From contig JACQKU010000014.1 of assembly GCA_016204335.1 (NCBI GenBank), positions 4,988 to 68,987 of the forward strand: a stretch of DNA of 64,000 bases, in the 5' to 3' direction. This document shows positions 5,640 to 62,714 of the stretch, piece by piece (the stretch's first letter is position 1; each line of letters begins with the position of its first letter). The notes below the pieces were generated by a model. That model did no database searches and was not told the origin of the DNA. It was given only the letters and a program-made list of their open reading frames with translations. The stretch is from Candidatus Liptonbacteria bacterium (GTDB lineage Bacteria > Patescibacteriota > Minisyncoccia > UBA6257 > 2-01-FULL-56-20). The position numbers and the translations under genes are program-made.

Positions 5640-6593
5640 ATGACTCATATTCCTGTTCTTTTACGCGAAGTCATAAAATTTTTGGAGCCCCGCCCGGGAG
5701 AATTCTTCATAGACGGAACGATTGACGGAGGGGGACACGGCGCAGAAATTTTTGAAAAGGTCGGCCCAGACGGAATGTTGCTAGGCATAGATTGGGACGA
5801 ACGAATGATTGAGATGGCAAAAGGAAAAATTTCTGCGAAATCAAATTTGAAATCTCCCCGCCTGCGCCGAGCCCGCCTGCCGGACGGGCAGGGCTTCGGC
5901 GGGCAGGAAAAATCAAAATTGATTTTGATTCACGGGAATTACGCCGACCTGCCTGAAATCTTGAAGAACGAAAAGTTGCCGAAAGCCGATGGACTCCTGC
6001 TTGACCTTGGATTTTCCTCGGAACAGTTGGAAACATCCGGCAGAGGATTCAGTTTCACGAAAAACGAACCGCTTCTGATGACCTACGATTCATCGCGTGA
6101 GCCGGTTAAAGAAATTATCCGGGACATTAGCGAAGAAATGCTTGCGAAAATAATTTTTGAATTTGGCGGCGAGCGGTTTTCAAGGCGAATCGCAAAGGCA
6201 ATCAAGGAAAGGGGGATGAGAAAACGAATCGAGACAACCGGCGAATTGAGCGAAGCAATACGAAGCGCGGTTCCGGGAAATTACGAACGCGGCCGAATCG
6301 AACCCGCAACGCGAACGTTTCAGGCATTGCGGATTTACGCGAACGACGAATTGGGAAATCTTGGAAGAGTTTTGAAAAAATTGCCCGAGATACTGAAGCA
6401 AGGAGGCCGGGCGGCAATCATAACTTTCCATTCGCTGGAAGACAGAATAGTGAAAAACGGTTTTCGGGAAATGGAGAAGCAAAACATATTGAATATACTC
6501 GCCAAAAAGCCGATAACGCCGTCCGCGGACGAGATAAGAGAAAATCCGCGAAGCCGGTCGGCAAAATTGAGAGCAGCAAAATTAGCTTATTAG
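5640..6593 (+). CDS. rsmH: 16S rRNA (cytosine1402-N4)-methyltransferase RsmH, with an in-frame GC-rich insertion
   Basis: MTHIPVLLREV..FIDGTIDGGGH SAM motif; the segment ~5850-5930 (KSPRLRRARLPDGQGFGGQ) is encoded by nested GC hairpins absent from typical RsmH. Confidence 0.9.
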   Translation: MTHIPVLLREVIKFLEPRPGEFFIDGTIDGGGHGAEIFEKVGPDGMLLGIDWDERMIEMAKGKISAKSNLKSPRLRRARLPDGQGFGGQEKSKLILIHGNYADLPEILKNEKLPKADGLLLDLGFSSEQLETSGRGFSFTKNEPLLMTYDSSREPVKEIIRDISEEMLAKIIFEFGGERFSRRIAKAIKERGMRKRIETTGELSEAIRSAVPGNYERGRIEPATRTFQALRIYANDELGNLGRVLKKLPEILKQGGRAAIITFHSLEDRIVKNGFREMEKQNILNILAKKPITPSADEIRENPRSRSAKLRAAKLAY

Positions 6594-8671: not shown

Positions 8672-8805
8672 TAAATAAAAGAAAATAGTTTATGGAAAAT
8701 AGAAATTGGTAATGGAAATAAGAAAATGGAAAATAGTACATATCAAATTTCCAATTTCCAGTTTCTATTACTAATTTCCAATTTCCAGCAACCAATTTCT
8801 AAATT

Positions 8806-10089
8806 ATGAGAACCTTTCTAATCAGTCTCCTCCGGTGGGTTTTAAAAAAAGTTGCACAACTCACTGTGCTACGCTACCGGCCCGGAATAGTCGGCATAAC
8901 CGGAAGCGTGGGCAAGACCTCGACCAAGCTTGCCATTGCGGCTGTTCTGGGACCGAGCCGCCACATAAGATTTTCCAAAAGCAATCTCAACAGCGACCTT
9001 GGATTGCCGATTACGGTTATCGGCGATTTTCGGGAAGAAGAATTGAAACTTGTCAGCCGGGACCAGCCGGCGCATGAAAAAAGGATTCGGAAAGCTTTTT
9101 TTTGGCTCAAGGTCATTTTTGTCGGTTTGTTCCGCCTCATCGTAAAAAAACAGGGCTACCCGGACATTTTGATTCTCGAGTACGGCGCGGACAGGCCCGA
9201 CGACCTGAAAAATCTTCTTGAAATCGCGCGGCCGAATATCAGTGTAATTACGGCTGTCGGCGACGTACCGGTTCATACGGAATTTTTCGGCGGGCCGCAG
9301 GAAGTGGCTCGGGAGAAAGCGCGGCTCATAGAATATCTGCCGTCATCGGGCTTCGCTGTTTTAAATTATGACGACGAAACGGTAATGGCTTTGAAAGAAC
9401 GAACCCGCGGCCATATTGTGACGTTCGGTTTCGGAAAAGGCGCGGAAGTCAGAACAATGAATTTTGAAAACAGAATTGAAAACAATCATCCGGGGGGAAT
9501 TTTTTTCAAATTGGAATACGGAGGCAGTTCGGTGCCGGTGCGGATAGACGGGGTGTTCGGCAAGGTGCAGGGATACGCCGCCGGAGCCGCCGCCGCCGTC
9601 GGTTTGATTTTCGGGCTGAATCTCATTAAGATTGCCGAGGCGTTGAAAGAGTACCGGCCGGCTTCTGGAAGGATGGAACTTTTACAAGGCATCAAGTCCT
9701 GTCTTATAATCGACAGCTCGTATAACGCAAGTCCGCTTTCGATGCATGCGGCGCTTGACCTCTTGAACGATTTGCCGGGAAAAAGAAAAATCGCCGTGCT
9801 CGGCGATATGCTCGAGATCGGAAAATATACGCTCGAGGCGCACGAGCGAGTCGGCAAGCTCGCGGCAGAGTTCGTTGACGCGCTCGTTACGGTGGGCCCT
9901 GCCGCAAAACTCATTGCCGAAGCCGCGAGAAAAAACGGTATCCCAAAAAGGAACATCCACAGTTTTGACACTGTCGATAACGCCGTCGAGCCGGTAGAGA
10001 ATTTAATCAAAAAAGGGGACTTGATTCTTGTGAAGGGCTCGCGCGCGATGGAACTTGAAAAGATTGTGGAGGGAATAAAAGCAGTATAA
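8806..10089 (+). CDS. murF: UDP-N-acetylmuramoyl-tripeptide--D-alanyl-D-alanine ligase
   Basis: Mur ligase P-loop IVGITGSVGKTSTK, DSSYNASP motif, 427 aa, dcw synteny. Confidence 0.85.
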   Translation: MRTFLISLLRWVLKKVAQLTVLRYRPGIVGITGSVGKTSTKLAIAAVLGPSRHIRFSKSNLNSDLGLPITVIGDFREEELKLVSRDQPAHEKRIRKAFFWLKVIFVGLFRLIVKKQGYPDILILEYGADRPDDLKNLLEIARPNISVITAVGDVPVHTEFFGGPQEVAREKARLIEYLPSSGFAVLNYDDETVMALKERTRGHIVTFGFGKGAEVRTMNFENRIENNHPGGIFFKLEYGGSSVPVRIDGVFGKVQGYAAGAAAAVGLIFGLNLIKIAEALKEYRPASGRMELLQGIKSCLIIDSSYNASPLSMHAALDLLNDLPGKRKIAVLGDMLEIGKYTLEAHERVGKLAAEFVDALVTVGPAAKLIAEAARKNGIPKRNIHSFDTVDNAVEPVENLIKKGDLILVKGSRAMELEKIVEGIKAV

Positions 10090-24599: not shown

Positions 24600-26060
24600 C
24601 CTCCTCTGCTCACAATCTTCCCGCCGTTCCAGTCCAGGCCCCCACACGCCGCACAGGCGTTCGTCGGGGGTCTCGTTCATTTTTGAGACTTTTCGAAGTG
24701 AGAATACGTATATGGAAGTTTTTTCCCGCTTCTACCCAACGCGGAGATTTTCGTTTTGAAAGCAGCTCTCGGAGGCAACAAAAGCTTGGTGTCCGAAGGA
24801 CTTTTGTTGCTGAGAGGAAGACGAAAAACACCGCTGGAGTGTTTTTACGGCGGTGCTTTCAAAACGAAAACCGGAGCACCTGCACAAGTTCAGATACATA
24901 TGAGACTTTTCGAACGGTCGAAAAGTCATGCGAATCCATAGCAAAATAGCTCATACCCGAGGGTTTGTCTCAACCTACAACGAGGCGCTACGCTTGCGGG
25001 ATATGATTACCCGTAAAGCAGAGGAACGCGCCCGCATCCTCGCGTTCTGGCAGAAGCACGGGGATGCCGCAGCCAAAGAGGCGTTCACCATTTCTCGTCC
25101 CACCTTGTTTCGATGGCAGAACAATCTCCATGCCGGAAGCGGCAAGCTCGAGGCATTGAATCCGGGAAGCACCGCGCCGAAGAACAGACGGAAACGGACG
25201 ATCCCTGAATCAGTCAAAGACCTCATTCTCACGGAACGTTCACGCGAGCGCATAGGCAAAGAGAAACTTGCCTTGCTTCTCAAGGAAGACGGCATCGCAA
25301 CGCTCTCGCCGTCAACGGTCGGCAGGATGCTCGATGATATGAAGCGCGCCGGCAAACTTCCGAACCCGCGCAAACTCTCTTTCTCGGGAAAGACCGGACG
25401 GCTCAACGAGCGAATAGCCCCGCAATACAAGAAGAAACTGCGGAGCAATGGCCATGAGGGAGCTCTCGTGAAAGCCGATACCGTGGTGAGATTCACGAAC
25501 GGCATCAAGCGGTATATTCTGACCGCGATTGATCAAGAAACGAAGTTTGCTTTCGCGTATGGCTACCCCTCGCATGGCTCGCAGCATGCCGCTGAGTTTA
25601 TGCAGACCTTCAAAGACGTGGCGCCAATTTCTCTGACTCATGTGCAGACGGATAACGGAAGCGAATTTGCAAATCATTTTGAGTCCTATCTGACCACAGA
25701 AGGCATTATCCATTTCCATATTTATCCCCGTTCTCCCCAGATGAATGCGGAGATCGAACGATTCAACCGGACCTTGTCCGAAGCCTTTATCTCGAAGAAC
25801 AGACATTTGTTGGCATACGACCTTCCCGCATTCAATCGAGAACTTATGGATTGGTTACTGTGGTACAACACGCGCAGGCCGCACTGGTCGATTGGCTTGA
25901 TTTCTCCGTTGAGGTATATTGTGAATCAACTACCCGCCGAAGAGTCTCATATGTTGTGGACGAGTACAGCACCTTGACTTTTAGTTGCAAGCCATGCTAT
26001 ACTCTCTTCGAATGAGTGTGAATATGCCTTAACGATGATATCGACTAAGGTATGTCGCAT
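24600..26060 (+). mobile_element. probable IS element carrying the transposase; ends not resolved
   Basis: Transposase ORF preceded by a 330-bp structured non-coding tract with GAGACTTTTCGAA direct repeats; no clean terminal inverted repeats found by eye. Confidence 0.35.
24928..25977 (+). CDS. IS481-like family DDE transposase (HTH + rve integrase core)
   Basis: N-terminal HTH (ISRPTLFRWQ), DDE core with DNGSEF, C-terminal YNTRRPHWSIGLISP; alternative start at 25003. Confidence 0.8.
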   Translation: MRIHSKIAHTRGFVSTYNEALRLRDMITRKAEERARILAFWQKHGDAAAKEAFTISRPTLFRWQNNLHAGSGKLEALNPGSTAPKNRRKRTIPESVKDLILTERSRERIGKEKLALLLKEDGIATLSPSTVGRMLDDMKRAGKLPNPRKLSFSGKTGRLNERIAPQYKKKLRSNGHEGALVKADTVVRFTNGIKRYILTAIDQETKFAFAYGYPSHGSQHAAEFMQTFKDVAPISLTHVQTDNGSEFANHFESYLTTEGIIHFHIYPRSPQMNAEIERFNRTLSEAFISKNRHLLAYDLPAFNRELMDWLLWYNTRRPHWSIGLISPLRYIVNQLPAEESHMLWTSTAP

Positions 26061-26370: not shown

Positions 26371-27321
26371 ATGTTTAAAGAAAACATTCCGCTTGCCGGG
26401 CATACAGGTTATAAAATCGGCGGACCCGCGCGTTATTTTTTTGAAGCGCGCAATCTTGATGAATTGGAGAGCGCCGTCCGGGAAGCCCGTAAAAAAAATC
26501 TTTCGATATTCGTTTTGGGCGGCGGCACGAATCTTTTGGTTTCGGATGAAGGATTCGACGGCTTGGCGCTGAAGCCGGATTTTCATTTCCTGGAACAAGA
26601 CGGCAACGAAGTGAATGTCGGCGCCGGCATCCCAATTGCCGAATTACTTAATTACTTAATTACTCATTCTCTGACTGGTCTTGAATGGGCGGGCGGTTTG
26701 CCGGGAACCGTTGGCGGAGCGGTTCGCGGGAATGCGGGAGCGTTCGGCGGAGAAACAAAAGACCTTATAAAAAGCGTCCGGAGTTTTGATATCGAGAAAT
26801 TAAAAGAAGTTGAACGCGAGGCGCCGGCGTGTGACTTCGGCTATCGTTCAAGCGTTTTTAAAAAGAAAGGAGGAACGGAGATTATTATGTCCGCGGTATT
26901 TGCTCTGAAAAAAGGCGATACGGAAACCGTCCGAAAATCAATTCACGAAAAAATAAATTATCGTCGGGAAAGGCATCCGTTGGAGTATCCCAATATCGGA
27001 AGTATTTTTAAAAACGTCCCCTTAACGCGGATAAGCGCGGATAGTATAAGCCTAAATTTGCCTGGCAGTACGCGTAAATCAGCGGCCATACCGGTGAAGA
27101 CAGACCCTGTGCCCGTGGTGCCGGCGGCGTATCTGATTTCCGAGGCCGGGTTGAAGGGTGTCAGCTTCGGCGGGGCGATGGTTTCTCCCAAGCATCCCAA
27201 TTTCATCGTAAACGTGCTTGAAGCGAAGGCATCAGACGTGAAAACGTTAATTGAGCTCGTGAAAAACGAAGTCCACGGAAAATTCGGAATAATTTTGGAG
27301 GAAGAAGTGCAGAGAATCTGA
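26371..27321 (+). CDS. murB: UDP-N-acetylenolpyruvoylglucosamine reductase
   Basis: FAD-binding N-terminus GYKIGGPARYF, GGGTNLL; an AATTACTTAATTACTTAATTACTC 8-mer repeat is embedded in the coding sequence (~26640). Confidence 0.85.
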   Translation: MFKENIPLAGHTGYKIGGPARYFFEARNLDELESAVREARKKNLSIFVLGGGTNLLVSDEGFDGLALKPDFHFLEQDGNEVNVGAGIPIAELLNYLITHSLTGLEWAGGLPGTVGGAVRGNAGAFGGETKDLIKSVRSFDIEKLKEVEREAPACDFGYRSSVFKKKGGTEIIMSAVFALKKGDTETVRKSIHEKINYRRERHPLEYPNIGSIFKNVPLTRISADSISLNLPGSTRKSAAIPVKTDPVPVVPAAYLISEAGLKGVSFGGAMVSPKHPNFIVNVLEAKASDVKTLIELVKNEVHGKFGIILEEEVQRI

Positions 27322-27609
27322 TTTTCCGGCAAACGCGGGACTTTTTCTTTCGGGAAGTTCTTAGAGATCTCATAAGAGCGGGGAATTTTTTTGTCGGAGG
27401 GCTGTCGGAACTCCGACGTGCTTGGTTTTTTACCGCTATGCCGCGGCATAGTGCCATGAGACATCGGAGCGATCGGCAATAAAAAATTTCTCTGCCTGCC
27501 GCCTGTCTGCCGGCAGGCAGGGCATGCAGGCGCCGGAGAAATTTTATCGCGGTTCCCGAAAGGAAAATATCCGGAGCAAAAGTTATGCACAGTTTTTCTA
27601 AAAATCGCA

Positions 27610-28372: not shown

Positions 28373-31144
28373 ATGTCAATTTTAAAAACGATTTTCGGCG
28401 ATTCAAACGACCGATATATAAAATCTCTCAAGCCGGCAATCGATGAGATAAACGACCTTGAAGAAAAATTCAAGGAATTTTCCGATTCGGAACTGCGCGC
28501 TTTAACCGATGGATTCAAAAATCGCCTGAAAGAAGGCGAGACGCTTGACGACATATTGGTCGAGGCGTTTGCCGCGGTTCGGGAGGTTGCGAAGCGGACG
28601 CTTAGCCAGCGCCCGTTCGACGTTCAGTTAATGGGGGGCATTGTTCTTCATCGCGGCGCGGTTGCGGAAATGGTGACCGGCGAAGGAAAGACGCTCGCCG
28701 CCGTGGCGCCGGCGTATCTCAACGCGCTTGCCGGCGAAGGAGCGCATATCGTGACCGTGAATGAATATCTCGCACGTCGCGACGCCGTATGGATGGGCCA
28801 GATTTACCGCGCGCTCGGTTTGAGCGTTGCTTGTCTGGTGCCGAACGCCGCGTTCGCGTACGACCCTTCCTATACGCAGATTAACGCGGATGCAGACGCA
28901 GATAAACGCGGATATATCAGCGAAAATCAGCGTGAAAATTTGCGAGAATCCGCGCTGTTGGATCGAGAACGCGATTCAACGGGAGGTTTTTTGATACAAC
29001 AGGAATTTTTGCGGCCCGTTTCGAGGCGCGAAGCGTATTTGTCGGACATTGTCTACGGCACAAACCATGAATTCGGATTCGATTATCTTCGCGACAATCT
29101 CGCGTACTCGTTCGAAGACCAAGTCCAAAGCGCGCAGATTAACGCAGATATTGAAATTCACGCGGATCAACGCAGATATAATATCAGCGAAAATCCGCGT
29201 CTCGATCAGCGAAAATCCGCGCACTATTACGCCATCATCGACGAGGTTGACAGCATTCTTATCGATGAGGCAAGGACGCCGCTCATTATTTCCGCTCCGG
29301 ACGCGGAATCGAGCGAGTTCTATAAAACATTTTCAAGAATTGTGGAACGTCTCCAGCCGGAAGAGGACTACAAAGTCGATGAAAAATTCAGAACTGTGAG
29401 CATTAACGATTCCGGAATAGAAAAAGTGGAAAAAATAATCGGCATTCAGAATTTGTACGCTCCGGAAAATCTTCGCTTGGTTCATTTTCTCGAAGAGTGT
29501 CTGAAAGCGAAAACGCTTTTCCGGCGCGACAAGGACTATGTCGTGAAAAACGGAGAAGTGATTATCGTCGACGAGTTTACCGGCAGGATGTTGCAGGGAC
29601 GGAGATACAACGCCGGACTTCATCAGGCGATTGAGGCGAAAGAAGGCGTGTTCGTGAAAGAAGAATCGAGAACATACGCGAAAATTTCGATTCAGAATTA
29701 TTTCAGGATTTATAAAAAAATCGCGGGCATGACCGGCACCGCGCAAACGTCCGCCGAAGAGTTTCACAAAGTGTATAACCTTGAAGTCGTGAGCATTCCG
29801 ACGAACCGGAAGCTTGTTCGGGAGCAGCTGCCGGATGTGATTTATAAAACAGCGGGTGCGAAATGGGACGCGGTTGTGAAAGAAATCGAGGCGTTGCACC
29901 GGCGCGGCCAGCCGGTTTTGGTAGGCACAACTTCGATTGAAAAAAACGAGCGCGTGTCCGAAAAACTCCATCGCGCGGGAATACCTCACGAGGTTTTGAA
30001 CGCGAAGAATAACGAACACGAAGGCGCGATTATCGCGCAAGCGGGCCGGCCGAACGCCGTGACAGTCGCGACGAATATGGCGGGGCGCGGCGTTGACATT
30101 ATTTTGGGCGGGAATCCGCCTTCGCCCGGCGAAGCGGAGAAAATACGGGGATTGGGCGGATTGCATGTCATCGGCACCGAGCGGCATGAAGCGCGCCGGA
30201 TTGACAATCAGTTGCGAGGGAGGGCAGGCAGGCAAGGCGACCCGGGTTCGGCGCAATTTTTTCTGTCGCTTGAAGACGATTTGCTCCGGATTTTCGGCGG
30301 TGACAGAATTAAAAATATGATGGAGACATTCAACCTGCCGGAAGACCAGCCGATTCAGGCGAGTTTTCTTTCGAAAGTAATCGGCCAGGCGCAGGCGAAA
30401 GTGGAAGGATTCAATTTCGATTTGCGGAAACGGCTTCTCGAGTACGACGACGTGTTGAACAAACAGCGAACATCGATTTACAAGCGCAGGCAGGAAATTC
30501 TTGAAAGTATGAATCGCGAGGACGTGGTAAAATTCATTTTCGACGCATCAAGCGAGTATCTCAATGTCCTTGCGAGCGTAGCGAAGCAATCTCCGGAGAT
30601 CGCCGCGGCCGAAGGCCTCGCGATGACGAGGAAGGCTTTCGAGGAAGCGGGAATTGTGGACAAGAATCATCCCTACCCCGAAGACGATTCGCAGGAAAAT
30701 CTGATTGAATTGCTCCACGCGCGGAGCGGAGAAGCCGCGGCCGACCCGTTTTCGAGAAACCGGCTTTTAAGCATTCTCGACCTTCTCTGGATGAACCAGT
30801 TGGACGATTTGGAGGCATTGAGCGAGTCAGTGGGGCTTCGCGCGTACGGCCAAAAAGACCCGATTGTCGAATACCGGCACGAAGCCCGCCGTCTTTTCAA
30901 GGATTTCTGGAACAATTTCAACGGGTGGGTGTTTATGAACATTTTTAAATTAGCGACAAGCGACAAGCGACAAGCGACAAGTTCGCAAATTTCAACTCCT
31001 CCTGTATTGCATGTCGCTAATAGCCATGTCGCAAAAGTTGGCCGCAACGATCCCTGCCCGTGCGGAGCGGTGAACCCGGCAACTGACCAGATATACAAAT
31101 ATAAGAAATGCGGTTTAATCAATGCGTCATATCATAAAAAATAG
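28373..31144 (+). CDS. secA: preprotein translocase ATPase SecA with in-frame repeat insertions
   Basis: DEAD motor (MGGIVLHRGAVAEMVTGEGKT, DEVDSILIDEARTPLIIS), C-terminal zinc motif CPCGA. Two extra segments (~28860-28990 and ~29130-29230) come from related hairpin-forming DNA repeats. A (GCGACAA)x4 tract sits at 30953-30981. Confidence 0.95.
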   Translation: MSILKTIFGDSNDRYIKSLKPAIDEINDLEEKFKEFSDSELRALTDGFKNRLKEGETLDDILVEAFAAVREVAKRTLSQRPFDVQLMGGIVLHRGAVAEMVTGEGKTLAAVAPAYLNALAGEGAHIVTVNEYLARRDAVWMGQIYRALGLSVACLVPNAAFAYDPSYTQINADADADKRGYISENQRENLRESALLDRERDSTGGFLIQQEFLRPVSRREAYLSDIVYGTNHEFGFDYLRDNLAYSFEDQVQSAQINADIEIHADQRRYNISENPRLDQRKSAHYYAIIDEVDSILIDEARTPLIISAPDAESSEFYKTFSRIVERLQPEEDYKVDEKFRTVSINDSGIEKVEKIIGIQNLYAPENLRLVHFLEECLKAKTLFRRDKDYVVKNGEVIIVDEFTGRMLQGRRYNAGLHQAIEAKEGVFVKEESRTYAKISIQNYFRIYKKIAGMTGTAQTSAEEFHKVYNLEVVSIPTNRKLVREQLPDVIYKTAGAKWDAVVKEIEALHRRGQPVLVGTTSIEKNERVSEKLHRAGIPHEVLNAKNNEHEGAIIAQAGRPNAVTVATNMAGRGVDIILGGNPPSPGEAEKIRGLGGLHVIGTERHEARRIDNQLRGRAGRQGDPGSAQFFLSLEDDLLRIFGGDRIKNMMETFNLPEDQPIQASFLSKVIGQAQAKVEGFNFDLRKRLLEYDDVLNKQRTSIYKRRQEILESMNREDVVKFIFDASSEYLNVLASVAKQSPEIAAAEGLAMTRKAFEEAGIVDKNHPYPEDDSQENLIELLHARSGEAAADPFSRNRLLSILDLLWMNQLDDLEALSESVGLRAYGQKDPIVEYRHEARRLFKDFWNNFNGWVFMNIFKLATSDKRQATSSQISTPPVLHVANSHVAKVGRNDPCPCGAVNPATDQIYKYKKCGLINASYHKK

Positions 31145-41665: not shown

Positions 41666-42061
41666 ATGCCGATTCTCAAAAAACCAAAGATTTTTCATTG
41701 GACCAGCCATAGCCGGGCAAAAATGCGTTTTTACGGATTGTCGGAAGCGCGATTGAGGCGCGTAATTCGTTCGCCACATCGGATTGAAGAGGGAATCGCG
41801 CCGGACACGGTCGCGATGATGCAGTCGGCCGGCAGCGCGAAGCATCCTTATGAAATCTGGCTGATGATTCAAGAGACGTGGATAAACGCAGACCTCACGC
41901 GGAATAACGCGGAAAAAAGAACACGTCAGCGTAAGTCAGCGTTAAGTCCGCGTAAGTCAGCGGTTATAAAAGTCATCAGCGCGTGGCGGTATCCGGGCAA
42001 AACAAAGCCGGGACAATCCCTGCCCGCGGAGATTTTGAGAGAAATGAGAAATTTTTTGTAG
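41666..42061 (+). CDS. DUF4258-like protein with 10-11-nt tandem repeat insertion
   Basis: HSRAKMRFYGLSEARLRRVI N-terminal motif; GTAAGTCAGCG-type repeats at ~41925-41960 encode RQRKSALSPRKSAV. Confidence 0.4.
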   Translation: MPILKKPKIFHWTSHSRAKMRFYGLSEARLRRVIRSPHRIEEGIAPDTVAMMQSAGSAKHPYEIWLMIQETWINADLTRNNAEKRTRQRKSALSPRKSAVIKVISAWRYPGKTKPGQSLPAEILREMRNFL

Positions 42062-48856: not shown

Positions 48857-49537
48857 CTAATTCCGCTTCTCAAGCGCGGCGCCTAAAGTGTCGTCGTCGG
48901 CGAATTCAATTTCGCCTCCAGTGGGGAGGCCGCGGCCGAGACGAGTAATTTTTTTCGCGAGCGGTTTCAGTTCCTTTTCGACAAGCGAAGAATTAAAATC
49001 GCCGTGACTTGTAGGATTGAATCCCAAGATGATTTCTTCCGCCTGCCCTGAGCCCGGTTGAAGGGCTTGCCCTGCTACGGCACCTGTCGAATGAGTCGTA
49101 TCCGGCGTATTTGACGTGTGTGTCGAATTTTTCGAATTGGCGATGAAATTTTTAAGATTTTGCAACCGGAGTTTTTGTCGGTCATCAAGAATGCCGGTTT
49201 TGGAAATCGCGCCCATAATGAAATACCGGCCGTTGAACCGAGACGTATTTTCAATTGAAAGGAGGTCGGTTTCTTTTTCGACAATCATTATTATGTCCTG
49301 CCTGCGCGCCGGGCTCCGGCAAATGTCGCAGAGCGTGTCCGGATTCTGGTGAATGAAGAAACACCGCTCGCATATTTTTATTTTTTTAAGTTCGTCGATG
49401 TTTTGCGAGAGGTTTTGGATGTTGTTCGAGCCAAGGCCAATGAGATAAAAAACAAGCCGGATAGCTTGTCTCGGTCCGATGGAAGGCAGTTCTGCAAGCG
49501 CGTCAACGAGCGCGCGGATGGAATCTGGCAGTTTCAT
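48857..49537 (-). CDS. recR: recombination protein RecR (with ~40-aa low-complexity insertion)
   Basis: HhH N-terminus, C4 zinc finger CERC..CDIC, Toprim; insert NSTHTSNTPDTTHSTGAVAG.. Confidence 0.85.
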   Translation of the reverse strand: MKLPDSIRALVDALAELPSIGPRQAIRLVFYLIGLGSNNIQNLSQNIDELKKIKICERCFFIHQNPDTLCDICRSPARRQDIIMIVEKETDLLSIENTSRFNGRYFIMGAISKTGILDDRQKLRLQNLKNFIANSKNSTHTSNTPDTTHSTGAVAGQALQPGSGQAEEIILGFNPTSHGDFNSSLVEKELKPLAKKITRLGRGLPTGGEIEFADDDTLGAALEKRN

Positions 49538-55269: not shown

Positions 55270-55308
55270 ATTTCACTTTTTTTGTCAGATAATTTATTCT
55301 TAGCTTGC

Positions 55309-55328
55309 GCCGGACTAGCTCATTGGTA
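55309..55328 (+). repeat. 20-nt duplicate of the tRNA-Phe 5' end (GCCGGACTAGCTCATTGGTA)
   Basis: Identical to 55626-55645. Confidence 0.75.
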
Positions 55329-55389
55329 CCTGCCTGCCGGCAGGCAGGGAGCGCAATCCTGGAATAGAAAATGGGTTCCTATCTTGTGC

Positions 55390-55635
55390 ATGGAATATTT
55401 TGTTTATATAATTCGAAGCGGTAAGGATAACAGTAATTACACTGGTTTGACTGCGAATTTAGAACGAAGAGTTGCTGAACATAACAAAAGTGATACGAAA
55501 ACCACTCGTTCTAAAAAGCCATGGAGGTTAATATACTTTGAAAAGTACTCATCACGGATTGAAGCAAGAAAACGAGAAAAATATTTAAAAAGCGGCACTG
55601 GACGTGAACTAAGGAAACAACTACTGCCGGACTAG
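55390..55635 (+). CDS. GIY-YIG nuclease family protein (homing-endonuclease-like), AT-rich
   Basis: YFVYIIRSGKDNSNYTGLTANLERRVAEHN GIY-YIG motif; stop TAG lies inside the tRNA-Phe 5' end. Confidence 0.65.
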   Translation: MEYFVYIIRSGKDNSNYTGLTANLERRVAEHNKSDTKTTRSKKPWRLIYFEKYSSRIEARKREKYLKSGTGRELRKQLLPD

Positions 55636-55697: not shown

Positions 55698-55975
55698 CAT
55701 ATTAGATTTTGTTCGCGCAATGCGCGCTACAAAATCTTCCCTGCCTGCCGGTAGGCGGGTATCCCGCCGCCGGCGGGACTGGGAAAATTTTTTCTGCTCA
55801 CTGGTGGAGCGAAAAGAATTTTCCTGCTTCCGAAACTGTGCAAAACTTATTTTGCTTTTTAGCGAAATAAATTTATTATTCGTATAATACTTCAGTATTG
55901 ATTTTTTTAGGCGATTCAGAATTGATTGTCCCTTTGGGGGAATAAAAGTTTCTCCGAGTTTCTCCAAACCGGGCA

Positions 55976-62104: not shown

Positions 62105-62714
62105 ACTCGTTAAGTTGTCAAAGAGCGAAACCGATGGGCGGGCGGAGAGTCAGCAGGACTCCCCGCCCGGAATCCTTTCGTTTCCCTTTGTAAGGGATAC
62201 GCTAGGTTTCTGCATTCGCCAGGGAGTTCGTCCACTGCCGATTGCGCCCACCATTGCAAATTCAGGCGGGCAAGAAAAGAGGGTTTTTCTTTTCTTACCC
62301 GGACGGCCTATGCGCCCGATGCGCAAGGTCCTCTGCGACCTCCGGAGGCTGGAGGCGCACCCAAAGTTTTCTGAATAAAGGATAGTACGACTCCGGCCAT
62401 TTGACAAGTTTTGAATGTCTGCTACACTTTAGAAGATTCCAAAGACCATAGGTGCCAAAGGGATAAACTTGCCCGCCGTAGTCCGCCATAGGTGGACGAA
62501 GGATGGGTCCTATGCAGGAGATTTCATTCGGATGGGCGCTTTCGTGATGCGCTATTCGGGCGAAACGCCTGCTTTGGAGAGCGGGTTTTTTATTTATAAG
62601 TATCAGCATAAATCCGCAAAAATCAGCATGAATCAGCGTGGAAAGCGCGCAACGATTTCTAGGTTTGGACCGCTGATAGATGCCGATTTCAGCTGATTAA
62701 TACCGATAAACTTC

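Follow-up and report, generated by a model that had tools for sequence, protein, structure and literature searches.

The secA gene in a stretch of 64,000 nucleotides from Candidatus Liptonbacteria (the window) contains two extra in-frame segments built from short, inverted DNA repeats, raising the question of what these repeats are and how they came to reside in a gene for an essential protein. The gene (28373..31144, + strand) is a 923-residue open reading frame with Pfam SecA domains; its product is 100% identical to NCBI Candidatus Liptonbacteria SecA, and the best match among SecA entries in the PDB has E = 7e-231. The organism is a tiny groundwater bacterium of the Patescibacteria. Both inserts probably represent a dispersed selfish DNA element, in copies that lack its gene and consist of just the paired arms.

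The inserts occupy positions 28874-28955 and 29132-29222, and each comprises four CGCRGAT units and then four ATCNGCG units in inverted orientation. In insert 1, the left arm (28874..28915, +) is formed by four ACGCRGAT units spaced 10/12/10 and encodes TQINADADADKRGY; the right arm (28916..28955, +), four ATCNGCG units with the same 10/12/10 spacing, encodes ISENQRENLRESA. The left arm of insert 2 (29132..29182, +; four CGCRGAT units, peptide AQINADIEIHADQRRYN) is spaced 10/18/10 and its right arm (29183..29222, +; four ATCMGCG units, peptide ISENPRLDQRKSA) 10/12/10. A sequence-only reading had proposed that the two segments derive from related repeats, and a repeat search of the window bears this out, with direct families D1 and D2 and inverted pairs I1-I4 connecting inserts 1 and 2. 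The string CAGATTAACGCRGAT occurs four times across the window against 0.42 expected, always within the secA inserts, and all three exact occurrences of ATCAGCGAAAATC in the window lie in secA. Within one insert, a single DNA unit is translated in all three frames (TQI / NAD / DAD / KRG), and the repeat is therefore a feature of the DNA. An assembly artefact was ruled out by the presence of orthologous arrays in independent NCBI, ENA, and JGI assemblies.

Both inserts are positioned in variable loops of the first nucleotide-binding domain, upstream of the DEVD motif. The predicted SecA structure has pLDDT values of 45-51 for residues 171-210 and 42-52 for residues 261-280, compared with 80-97 for the flanking core, and on this model the inserts are best read as tolerated, low-confidence loops. 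Alignment of homologues delimits the two segments and supports the earlier view that they are missing from canonical SecA: insert 2 (residues 253-280) is left unaligned to T. maritima SecA (PDB entry 3DIN) by HMMER and has no counterpart in the SecA proteins of the PDB, and both sites exceed their modal lengths among 102 parsable homologues with 61-88% identity (site 1: 37 residues, mode 18 in 50/102; site 2: 43 residues, mode 14 in 83/102). Most SecA orthologues have neither insert, and some have variable arrays at these two sites. At site 1 the closest relative, P0002 (~83-90% identity, varying with the alignment), carries unrelated sequence, and its site 2 is empty; orthologues more distant than P0002 display site 1 arrays of 4+4, 2+4, or residual 1+1 units.

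If the inserts were lineage-specific SecA loops under selection as peptides, for instance for interaction with a partner, the repetition in the DNA would be incidental. Consistent with this, insert 1 reaches 0.85-0.95 amino-acid identity between some orthologues, and both sites recur across the clade. The codon-position test, however, largely refutes it. Third-codon-position identities of insert 1 between the window and L001, L003, L006, and L007 are 0.78, 0.90, 0.70, and 0.67, against 0.48, 0.46, 0.40, and 0.48 for the remaining secA (Fisher p = 0.002, 5e-5, 0.002, and 0.07, with only 20-27 codons per comparison). Identity of 67-90% at third positions in insert 1, against 40-48% elsewhere in the gene, indicates that the DNA is conserved and not the peptide. 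The outcome that the sequence-only reading had named as pointing to ancient loops, homologous peptide inserts encoded by unrelated DNA, is not what the orthologues display; the insert DNA is conserved above host synonymous sites. Peptide selection is also at odds with identical DNA units giving different peptides in three frames, with a nearest relative that lacks the inserts, with near-identical DNA in murB and leuS, and with the low confidence of the inserts in the SecA model; it is extremely unlikely. A third-position signal of selection would equally be produced by repeated re-insertion or by gene conversion from other copies.

The window contains four in-frame copies in total (two in secA, one in an ORF at about 41666-42061, and one in murB) and one intergenic relative. 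The third in-frame copy (41883..41962, +) has 3+4 units of a GAC/GTC subtype and encodes INADLTRNNAEKRTRQRKSALSPRKSA; its 131-residue host ORF had no Pfam match. A decayed copy (27024..27085, +; peptide LTRISADSISLNLPGSTRKSA) is in frame within murB (26371-27321), where L005 and L028 have full 4+4 arrays at the same site. The intergenic relative (62602..62698, +), upstream of an rplJ-like ORF, is inside-out, with four ATCAGCR units, a 32-nt spacer, and four CGCTGAT-type units. In related genomes, 4+4 elements are found in frame in murB, tpiA, lepA, leuS, pheS, mnmA, and genes for a class I aaRS and a PMT_2 glycosyltransferase. The 4+4 plan and a short-long-short spacing are common to both secA inserts and seven further aligned copies (murB, leuS, class I aaRS, PMT_2 glycosyltransferase, and other secA sites), in which CGC-GAT x4 and ATC-GCG x4 are invariant and variation falls in the spacers and central base. 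The arms of this short form abut, leaving 2-5 nt in the middle. When genomes were scanned for the arm junction, >119 loci were matched, from Acidobacteriota, Patescibacteria, Omnitrophota, cyanobacteria, Chloroflexota, Verrucomicrobiota, and Pseudomonadota. The element is mostly intergenic in Acidobacteriota, cyanobacteria, Omnitrophota, and others, and arrays lie within long ORFs at 11/21 Patescibacteria loci versus 5/121 elsewhere (p = 1e-7). These distributions, together with the many host genes, support the initial suggestion that an intergenic-type repeat colonised coding regions in frame. Inspection of the flanks of ~80 copies revealed neither a consistent direct repeat indicative of a target-site duplication nor a defined terminus. 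Literature searches with the repeat unit strings gave no relevant match, and nothing relevant was found on in-frame palindromic repeats in the candidate phyla radiation or Patescibacteria.

Arrays could also have grown in place from a short loop seed, by replication slippage or template switching, with no mobile element involved. At secA site 1, L005 has a minimal 1+1 array (GTACAGATAGAATCGGCGC) and L003 a 2+4 array, which indicates that copy number changes in place, and the native flank (...SALL...) is similar to a unit. Such growth does not account for the recurrence of the 4+4 plan, with equal spacing and ~78% mean identity, across distant genomes and six or more unrelated genes. Nor does it explain insert 2, a full 4+4 copy whose sequence was not found at site 2 of any of the 102 parsable homologues, the GC-rich palindrome nested inside the L005 murB array, or the gene-bearing form at secA site 1 described below, and we consider it very unlikely as the origin of the arrays.

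The repeats had initially been described as hairpin-forming. The inverted arrays are confirmed, but strong hairpins are not found in secA, where the arrays form only weak, bulged, and segmented hairpins (z = −1.9 and −4.4 for DNA, −3.7 and −5.0 for RNA). The copy at 41883..41962 has a DNA fold z of −4.1, and the intergenic relative at 62602..62698 gives −2.7 (DNA) and −3.7 (RNA); an intergenic relative from Acidobacteriota forms a perfect hairpin of 30 bp (z = −16.9). Only 8/63 unit pairs in Patescibacteria copies have complementary central bases, which makes it unlikely that hairpin formation is the property maintained. A perfect-hairpin reading of the coding copies was rejected on the grounds of these unit centres and the bulged folds. 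Co-option of the arrays as cis-elements, whether ~10-bp-periodic binding sites for a host protein, uptake-signal-like sequences, or translation-pausing mRNA structures, would fit DNA conservation in excess of coding needs, a ~10-11-nt period that would align the units along a single helical face, and RNA folds somewhat better than those of shuffled sequence. Against this, the units recur across many phyla, a spread not expected of species-specific uptake signals, and occupancy of sites is patchy even between close relatives. In addition, base pairing at unit centres is poor, and an Rfam scan of the whole window at gathering thresholds returned four tRNAs only, with nothing at the arrays. A cis-acting role is accordingly improbable.

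As judged from sequence, and beyond what had been noted before, the arrays make up the arms of a larger element, whose gene is for a GxxExxY nuclease. The full-length form comprises four ~10-nt units (core CGCNGAT), a GxxExxY gene of ~120 codons, and four inverted ATCNGCG units. This order was found in L076, L127, L128, and L018, with arms corresponding to those of the short forms. In L127 and L128 (P0042 and P0084, from two Patescibacteria), an in-frame full-length element occupies secA site 1 itself, in the order YDPTY-V, four CGCGGAC units, GxxExxY, four GTCNGCG units, and LLDKERD, and its boundaries are those of the window insert; the L127 arms are of the GAC subtype. Full-length elements are also in frame in lepA (L018, P0121, and P0136) and in a helicase-like fragment (P0122), for which the host was assigned by eye from the motif MTATPIPRTLAL. 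The Omnitrophota locus L076 contains a free-standing full-length copy with start and stop codons within the arms. Searches of the sampled loci with tblastn identified three GxxExxY genes (L018, L028, and L076), each directly following an array of left-arm units only; in L028 the left arm alone accompanies the gene, and the locus ends there. No GxxExxY gene was found in the six-frame translation of the window (E ≤ 10) or in the secA neighbourhoods of L001-L007, and the link to the long form rests on relatives and not on this genome.

GxxExxY proteins (TIGR04256/PF13366) have the PD-(D/E)XK nuclease fold, with D, E, and K invariant at the motif positions. The element-encoded protein matches PF13366/TIGR04256 only, and a sequence search for solved structures of relatives gave none below E = 0.5. 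In the literature searched, GxxExxY, PDDEXK_3, and PF13366 are mentioned in passing only, with function given as "Unknown", and no transposase-like activity of PF13366 is recorded. The generality of the association was judged from a metagenome scan; the word-indexed protein search with the GxxExxY domain gave 54 matches. Flanking inverted arrays, defined as a 6-mer with two or more occurrences upstream and two or more of its reverse complement downstream, accompany 33/73 metagenomic GxxExxY genes compared with 3/62 controls in which the flanks were displaced by 250 nt. When at least three occurrences per side are demanded, the counts are 11/73 and 0/62. Unit sequences differ among these loci (ACGCGGAT, ACACGGAT, CACAGAT, CGCTGAT, and ACGCGAAA), and the family as a whole, which is large, is suggested to consist of nucleases linked to the repeat arrays that flank their own genes.

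Removal of the inserts before the mature protein is formed, whether by RNA excision, ribosomal bypass, or protein splicing, in the manner of an intron or intein, could draw on arms able to juxtapose the flanks in RNA, and tRNA-splicing endonucleases share the fold of the GxxExxY protein. Excision would make preservation of the reading frame unnecessary, yet the frame is always preserved, which argues for translation: of 15 in-gene copies of the short form examined, 14 share a single open frame relative to the element, the other (in the ORF at about 41666-42061) is also in frame with its host, and all six gene-bearing insertions in host proteins continue the host frame on every side available. 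No intein-like junction residues were seen by eye, nor was there an intron match in Rfam, and removal is scarcely credible.

On the favoured account of the secA inserts, as gene-less element copies, many copies would land in genes in gene-dense Patescibacteria genomes. Those that persist would be a multiple of three in length, translated in the one usually stop-free frame (ACG CAG AT. = TQI-NAD ... (K/E)SA), and located in loops tolerant of extra residues. The SecA arrays would be translated to a hydrophilic, probably disordered peptide that is retained in the mature protein, with SecA remaining functional. The arms would be recognised by the GxxExxY nuclease, driving spread via homing or cut-and-repair, and the short form may be derived from, or mobilised by, the long form.

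It is conceivable that the arrays are instead the recognition or homing site of the nuclease and not transposon-like ends. The nuclease would then cleave an intact 4+4 array at its centre, the gene would be installed through repair templated by a gene-bearing copy, and the window inserts would be uninterrupted target sites spread by another route. The gene is always positioned exactly between the inner units, the centre of the short form is only 2-5 nt, and the unit sequence varies between GxxExxY loci, all as expected for a homing site; the precise absence of the gene from every short form fits a target site at least as well as it fits termini. A homing site leaves the arrival of gene-less arrays at new loci, such as secA site 2, unexplained, and short forms far outnumber gene-bearing forms in the loci sampled. 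We therefore regard it as possible but unlikely. More broadly, and with confidence falling somewhat short of even, we propose that GxxExxY proteins, a large family, are the nucleases of phylum-spanning selfish elements bounded by 4+4 arrays of ~10-nt units and absent from the searchable literature. Patescibacteria copies would be unspliced in-frame insertions in essential genes, expressed within the host protein, and the SecA loops of the window would be gene-less remnants. If true, unspliced in-frame residence would represent a third strategy beside inteins and introns.

Homing endonuclease genes (in inteins and introns) resemble the long form in being small selfish nuclease genes at conserved positions of essential genes whose hosts remain functional. 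I-Ssp6803I and I-Bth0305I are homing enzymes of the PD-(D/E)XK fold. In contrast to these genes, the GxxExxY element lacks a self-splicing carrier and is flanked by repeats, and its insert is apparently translated and retained. The nearest precedent for the secA inserts is the Rickettsia palindromic elements (RPEs; Ogata et al. 2000, 'Selfish DNA in protein-coding genes of Rickettsia'; reviewed in PMC10969869), which measure ~100-150 bp, are confined to Rickettsia and its relatives, and lack any known associated gene. Both are short dispersed repeats, palindromic in RPEs and made of inverted arms in the 4+4 elements, that lie in frame in unrelated housekeeping genes of small genomes, and both keep the host frame and add a family-specific peptide presumed to be compatible with fold and function. 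The 4+4 elements differ in their length of ~80-90 nt, periodic 7-8-nt units, occurrence in many phyla, and gene-bearing GxxExxY form; as length (80-90 nt) and host phylum differ, they are not assigned to the RPE class.

MITEs, including intragenic ERIC/RU and Coxiella QMITE, likewise have a commoner gene-less form with the ends of a longer gene-bearing form, and produce in-frame fusions with host ORFs (PMC10969869, PMC2759123, PMC5896051). Unlike in MITEs, no target-site duplication was found at copies of the 4+4 element, its ends are four-unit arrays and not a simple terminal inverted repeat, and its long form encodes a ~120-residue PD-(D/E)XK nuclease and not a known transposase. REP/REPIN-RAYT systems, whose repeats form hairpins, also combine abundant, mostly intergenic repeats with a single small repeat-flanked gene (PMC3733652). 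A REP is a palindrome of 20-40 nt that bears a GTAG or CGTC tag and is mobilised by a Y1 (IS200/IS605-like) enzyme (PMC3733652), whereas the 4+4 element has a different unit structure and enzyme fold (PD-(D/E)XK); no GTAG or CGTC tag was seen by eye in its units or ends. Nematomorpha mitochondrial genes provide a further example of inverted repeats in coding sequence with both arms translated, although these are long perfect hairpins in animal mitochondrial genes, with no associated gene and unrelated sequence (PMC6649704).

On the favoured reading, essential proteins of Patescibacteria (SecA, MurB, LepA, and aminoacyl-tRNA synthetases) would have been remodelled by selfish DNA that is translated straight through. 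The element would account for many low-complexity inserts and "INAD/NQRKSA" peptides in predicted Patescibacteria proteomes, and annotation should treat such segments as repeat-derived in alignments, models, and trees. The recurrent occupancy of two SecA loops would, in addition, provide a natural map of insertion-tolerant SecA positions.

Two other genes in the window had been grouped with secA. The recR insert, put forward as a further case, was rejected: it consists of a 9-nt tandem repeat and a GC-rich direct repeat, with no inverted repeat. The rsmH insert does derive, as proposed, from nested palindromes of a family also present near 27492 and 55328, and this is a second repeat family, unrelated to the secA arrays. 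Within rsmH (5640-6593), the in-frame GC-rich palindrome (5854..5906, +) encodes SPRLRRARLPDGQGFGGQ and has inverted repeat arms at 5854-5875 and 5885-5906. RsmH residues 68-94 are extra relative to PDB entry 1M6Y, and the site is variable in length across 121 homologues (mode 28 residues, window 52). The shared core GCCTGCCGG occurs five times in the window against 0.41 expected (5875, 27510, 55332, 55337, and 55743). The intergenic members comprise one of the CTGCCTGCCGGCAGGCAG palindrome family at 27492..27521 (+), a perfect 20-nt palindrome, CCTGCCTGCCGGCAGGCAGG, at 55329..55348 (+), and a third at 55740..55759 (+), directly after a tRNA gene.

The secA gene of the window (28373-31144, + strand) encodes a 923 aa protein, and a Candidatus Liptonbacteria MAG at NCBI has an identical annotated SecA. 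The gene carries two in-frame inserts, both composed of repeats of a single short DNA unit. Insert 1 (28874-28955) comprises a left arm of four CGCRGAT units, ACGCAGAT-TA-ACGCGGAT-GCAG-ACGCAGAT-AA-ACGCGGAT-AT up to the arm junction, and a right arm of four inverted ATCNGCG units, ATCAGCGA-AA-ATCAGCGT-GAAA-ATTTGCGA-GA-ATCCGCGC, with 10/12/10 spacing in each arm. Insert 2 (29132-29222) follows the same 4+4 plan. The motif CAGATTAACGCRGAT has four matches (0.42 expected), all within the two inserts. The encoding of the extra SecA segments by related inverted DNA repeats, as proposed by the sequence-only reading, is real, and a chance pattern is excluded. A third repeat-built segment lies in the C-terminal variable region (30952-31033), with four tandem GCGACAA copies (period 7) and, after them, two inverted ATGTCGC copies, read as ATSDKRQATSS...; this is a hot spot, with CGCNGAT-type arrays in the equivalent place in three relatives' loci (L003, L005, and L006).

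Alignment with orthologs, the check advised for delimiting the inserts, locates both. Against T. maritima SecA, the best relative with a solved structure, the alignment splits into two blocks and skips residues 253-280, which constitute insert 2; insert 1 falls within an already variable stretch of the first nucleotide-binding domain. Among 102 parsable homologs (61-88% identity), the place of insert 1 (site 1) is most often 18 aa long (50/102 sequences), with a tail to 53 aa, and that of insert 2 (site 2) most often 14 aa (83/102), with 3-29 extra residues in 19 sequences. The peptides TQINAD, TQTDAD, NQRKSA, and PRESA recur in many longer versions. In the DNA of seven orthologs (L001-L007), site 1 holds 4+4 arrays (L001, L006), a 2+4 array (L003), a GAC/TCC-type 4+5 array (L004), an irregular array (L007), and a residual 1+1 array (L005), while in L002, the closest relative, the site 1 sequence is unrelated and site 2 is empty. 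The contig of L001 and L121 is labelled Saccharibacteria yet encodes a Liptonbacteria-like SecA, and some MAG taxonomic labels are doubtful. Site 2 is longer by only three residues in six homologs (P0051, P0064, P0067, P0073, P0045, and P0068; QVQ-SARG/TARG-...), and these residues might be footprints of lost arrays.

In two SecA homologs, P0042 and P0084, a GxxExxY domain (PF13366, E = 4e-30; TIGR04256, E = 1e-31; full-length coverage of both profiles) sits exactly at site 1. It is preceded by YDPTY-V[CGCGGAC]CT[CGCGGAC]AGGA[CGCAGAC]CT[CGCCGAA], spans 116 aa, and is followed by {GTCCGCG}TGA{GTCTGCG}TCCA{GTCAGCG}CGA{GTCAGCG}-TTGCTGGAT; the insertion is in-frame on both sides, and its boundaries match those of insert 1. 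Arms and GxxExxY gene also occur in-frame in lepA (L018, P0121, and P0136) and in P0122, where the host, identified by eye, is a helicase-like fragment. A free-standing Omnitrophota copy (L076) consists of four units, a 138-aa ORF, and four inverted units, the start and stop codons lying inside the arms. The window's 64 kb contain no GxxExxY gene; the three such genes that tblastn located among the fetched loci all lie directly 3′ of a left-arm-only array. In an independent sample of metagenomic GxxExxY loci, 33/73 have a 6-mer with two or more occurrences upstream and two or more of its reverse complement downstream, vs 3/62 control flanks displaced by 250 nt (three or more: 11/73 vs 0/62). 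The unit varies among these genes (ACGCGGAT, ACACGGAT, CACAGAT, CGCTGAT, ACGCGAAA), which may mean that every nuclease recognises arms of its own. The predicted GxxExxY structure has a PD-(D/E)XK nuclease fold (core pLDDT 94-98), and the motif D, E, and K are invariant. In L130 (1483-2880), a GxxExxY gene and its arms are fused in-frame to the extreme N-terminal end of a protein predicted to be membrane-bound or secreted, after the start codon and before the hydrophobic segment.

On the best reading of these sequences, the secA inserts would be paired arms, lacking the gene, of a selfish element of the GxxExxY type. Such pairs would become fixed at places where the frame is kept, no stop arises, and the host tolerates them, and would be translated as loops of the host protein, with the GxxExxY nuclease presumably acting in their spread; the arrays may be either the ends of the element or the nuclease's target site. 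Growth of the arrays in place by slippage is unlikely, given that unrelated genes share the 4+4 plan and that site 1 also holds the gene-bearing form. In-frame palindromic repeats are already known from Rickettsia and some MITEs (PMC10969869). The array family, its copies in Patescibacteria housekeeping genes, and, most of all, the tie to GxxExxY genes did not come up in the searchable literature (subscription journals lie outside this scope). A 349-aa ORF at 24928-25977 is IS-type transposase-like by eye (helix-turn-helix and integrase-like), without a link to the arrays.

Further copies in the window are an in-frame 3+4 array in ORF 41666-42061, a decayed in-frame array in murB (27024-27085), and an intergenic relative (62602-62698). 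The last, placed between a structured region and an rplJ-like ORF, has its arms in reversed order (right-arm-type units, a 32-nt spacer, left-arm-type units), an arrangement that resembles a pair of element ends side by side or the junction of joined ends. Relatives carry arrays in the secA C-terminus, murB, and tpiA. Scanning one genome per species places the arm junction at at least 119 loci, in Acidobacteriota (many per genome), Patescibacteria, Omnitrophota, cyanobacteria, Chloroflexota, Verrucomicrobiota, and Pseudomonadota; the Acidobacteriota form is a near-perfect 3+3 hairpin adjoining gene ends (z = -16.9). Among the loci listed, 11/21 arrays in Patescibacteria-labelled loci lie within long open frames vs 5/121 elsewhere (p = 1e-7), and Pfam-confirmed hosts are LepA, MurB, LeuRS, MnmA, PheS, a class I aaRS, and a PMT_2 glycosyltransferase. 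In an alignment of nine short copies, drawn from six host genes, CGC-GAT x4 / ATC-GCG x4 is invariant (mean identity 78%). In one Patescibacteria MAG, the array-bearing LeuRS (L035, 2125-5700; 1192-aa frame) also matches Pfam alpha/beta hydrolase (aa 277-431) and NUDIX (aa 589-712) domains inside the synthetase; array host genes may receive whole-domain insertions too.

Just 1-3 of the six frames are open per in-gene copy, and 14 of the 15 copies checked use one frame relative to the element. Were the segments removed before the mature protein is made, such frame preservation would be needless. Within a single insert, all three frames of one unit are used (TQI, NAD, DAD, and KRG). Homologous peptides over unrelated DNA, named beforehand as the finding contrary to repeat insertion, are the opposite of what is observed: third-codon-position identity between the window and L001, L003, L006, and L007 is 0.78, 0.90, 0.70, and 0.67 in insert 1, vs 0.48, 0.46, 0.40, and 0.48 over ~778 secA codons (Fisher p = 0.002, 5e-5, 0.002, and 0.07). 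This contradicts maintenance by peptide-level selection, and what is conserved in insert 1 is the DNA, not the peptide. The signal has one of three sources: nucleic-acid-level constraint, recurrent re-insertion, or homogenisation by copies elsewhere.

The description of the repeats as hairpin-forming fits no more than partly: coding copies fold as segmented hairpins only, the central base of opposed units is complementary in 8/63 pairs in Patescibacteria arrays vs 113/196 in other phyla, and the coding strand is T-poor. In appearance the periodic units are closer to binding sites than to stems. An AlphaFold2 model of SecA (116 homologs as input, mean pLDDT 77) gives pLDDT values of 45-51 at residues 171-210 and 42-52 at 261-280, vs 80-97 in the flanking domain core, and fits flexible loops; it is no proof of surface exposure.

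The recR gene, put forward as a further case, was rejected as a host of an array-type element. Its insert (49034-49138, minus strand; ~30 extra residues, NSKNSTHTSNTPDTTHSTGAVAGQALQPGSGQAEE) consists of six degenerate 9-nt tandem repeats and a GC-rich direct repeat (two copies of GCYTGCCCTG), and an inverted repeat is absent. The rsmH insert was borne out: residues 68-94 have no counterpart in solved RsmH and are encoded by a nested GC-rich palindrome, which is a second repeat family, apart from the secA arrays. GCCTGCCGG is common to this insert and the intergenic palindromes at 27492, 55329, and 55740 (5 matches, 0.41 expected), and the site is variable among 121 homologs, some having a shorter PRLRRGFGGQ form. 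In L005 murB (8711-8830), a GC-rich palindrome (CTCGCCTGCC...GGCGGGCAGG) splits a 4+4 array between right-arm units 2 and 3, one family nested inside the other with the frame intact. There are hints of a possible link between the GC-rich family, too, and a nuclease gene. A small ORF at 55282-55635 is GIY-YIG nuclease-like by eye, and GC-rich palindromes (55329-55348 and 55740-55759) bracket it together with the adjacent tRNA gene.
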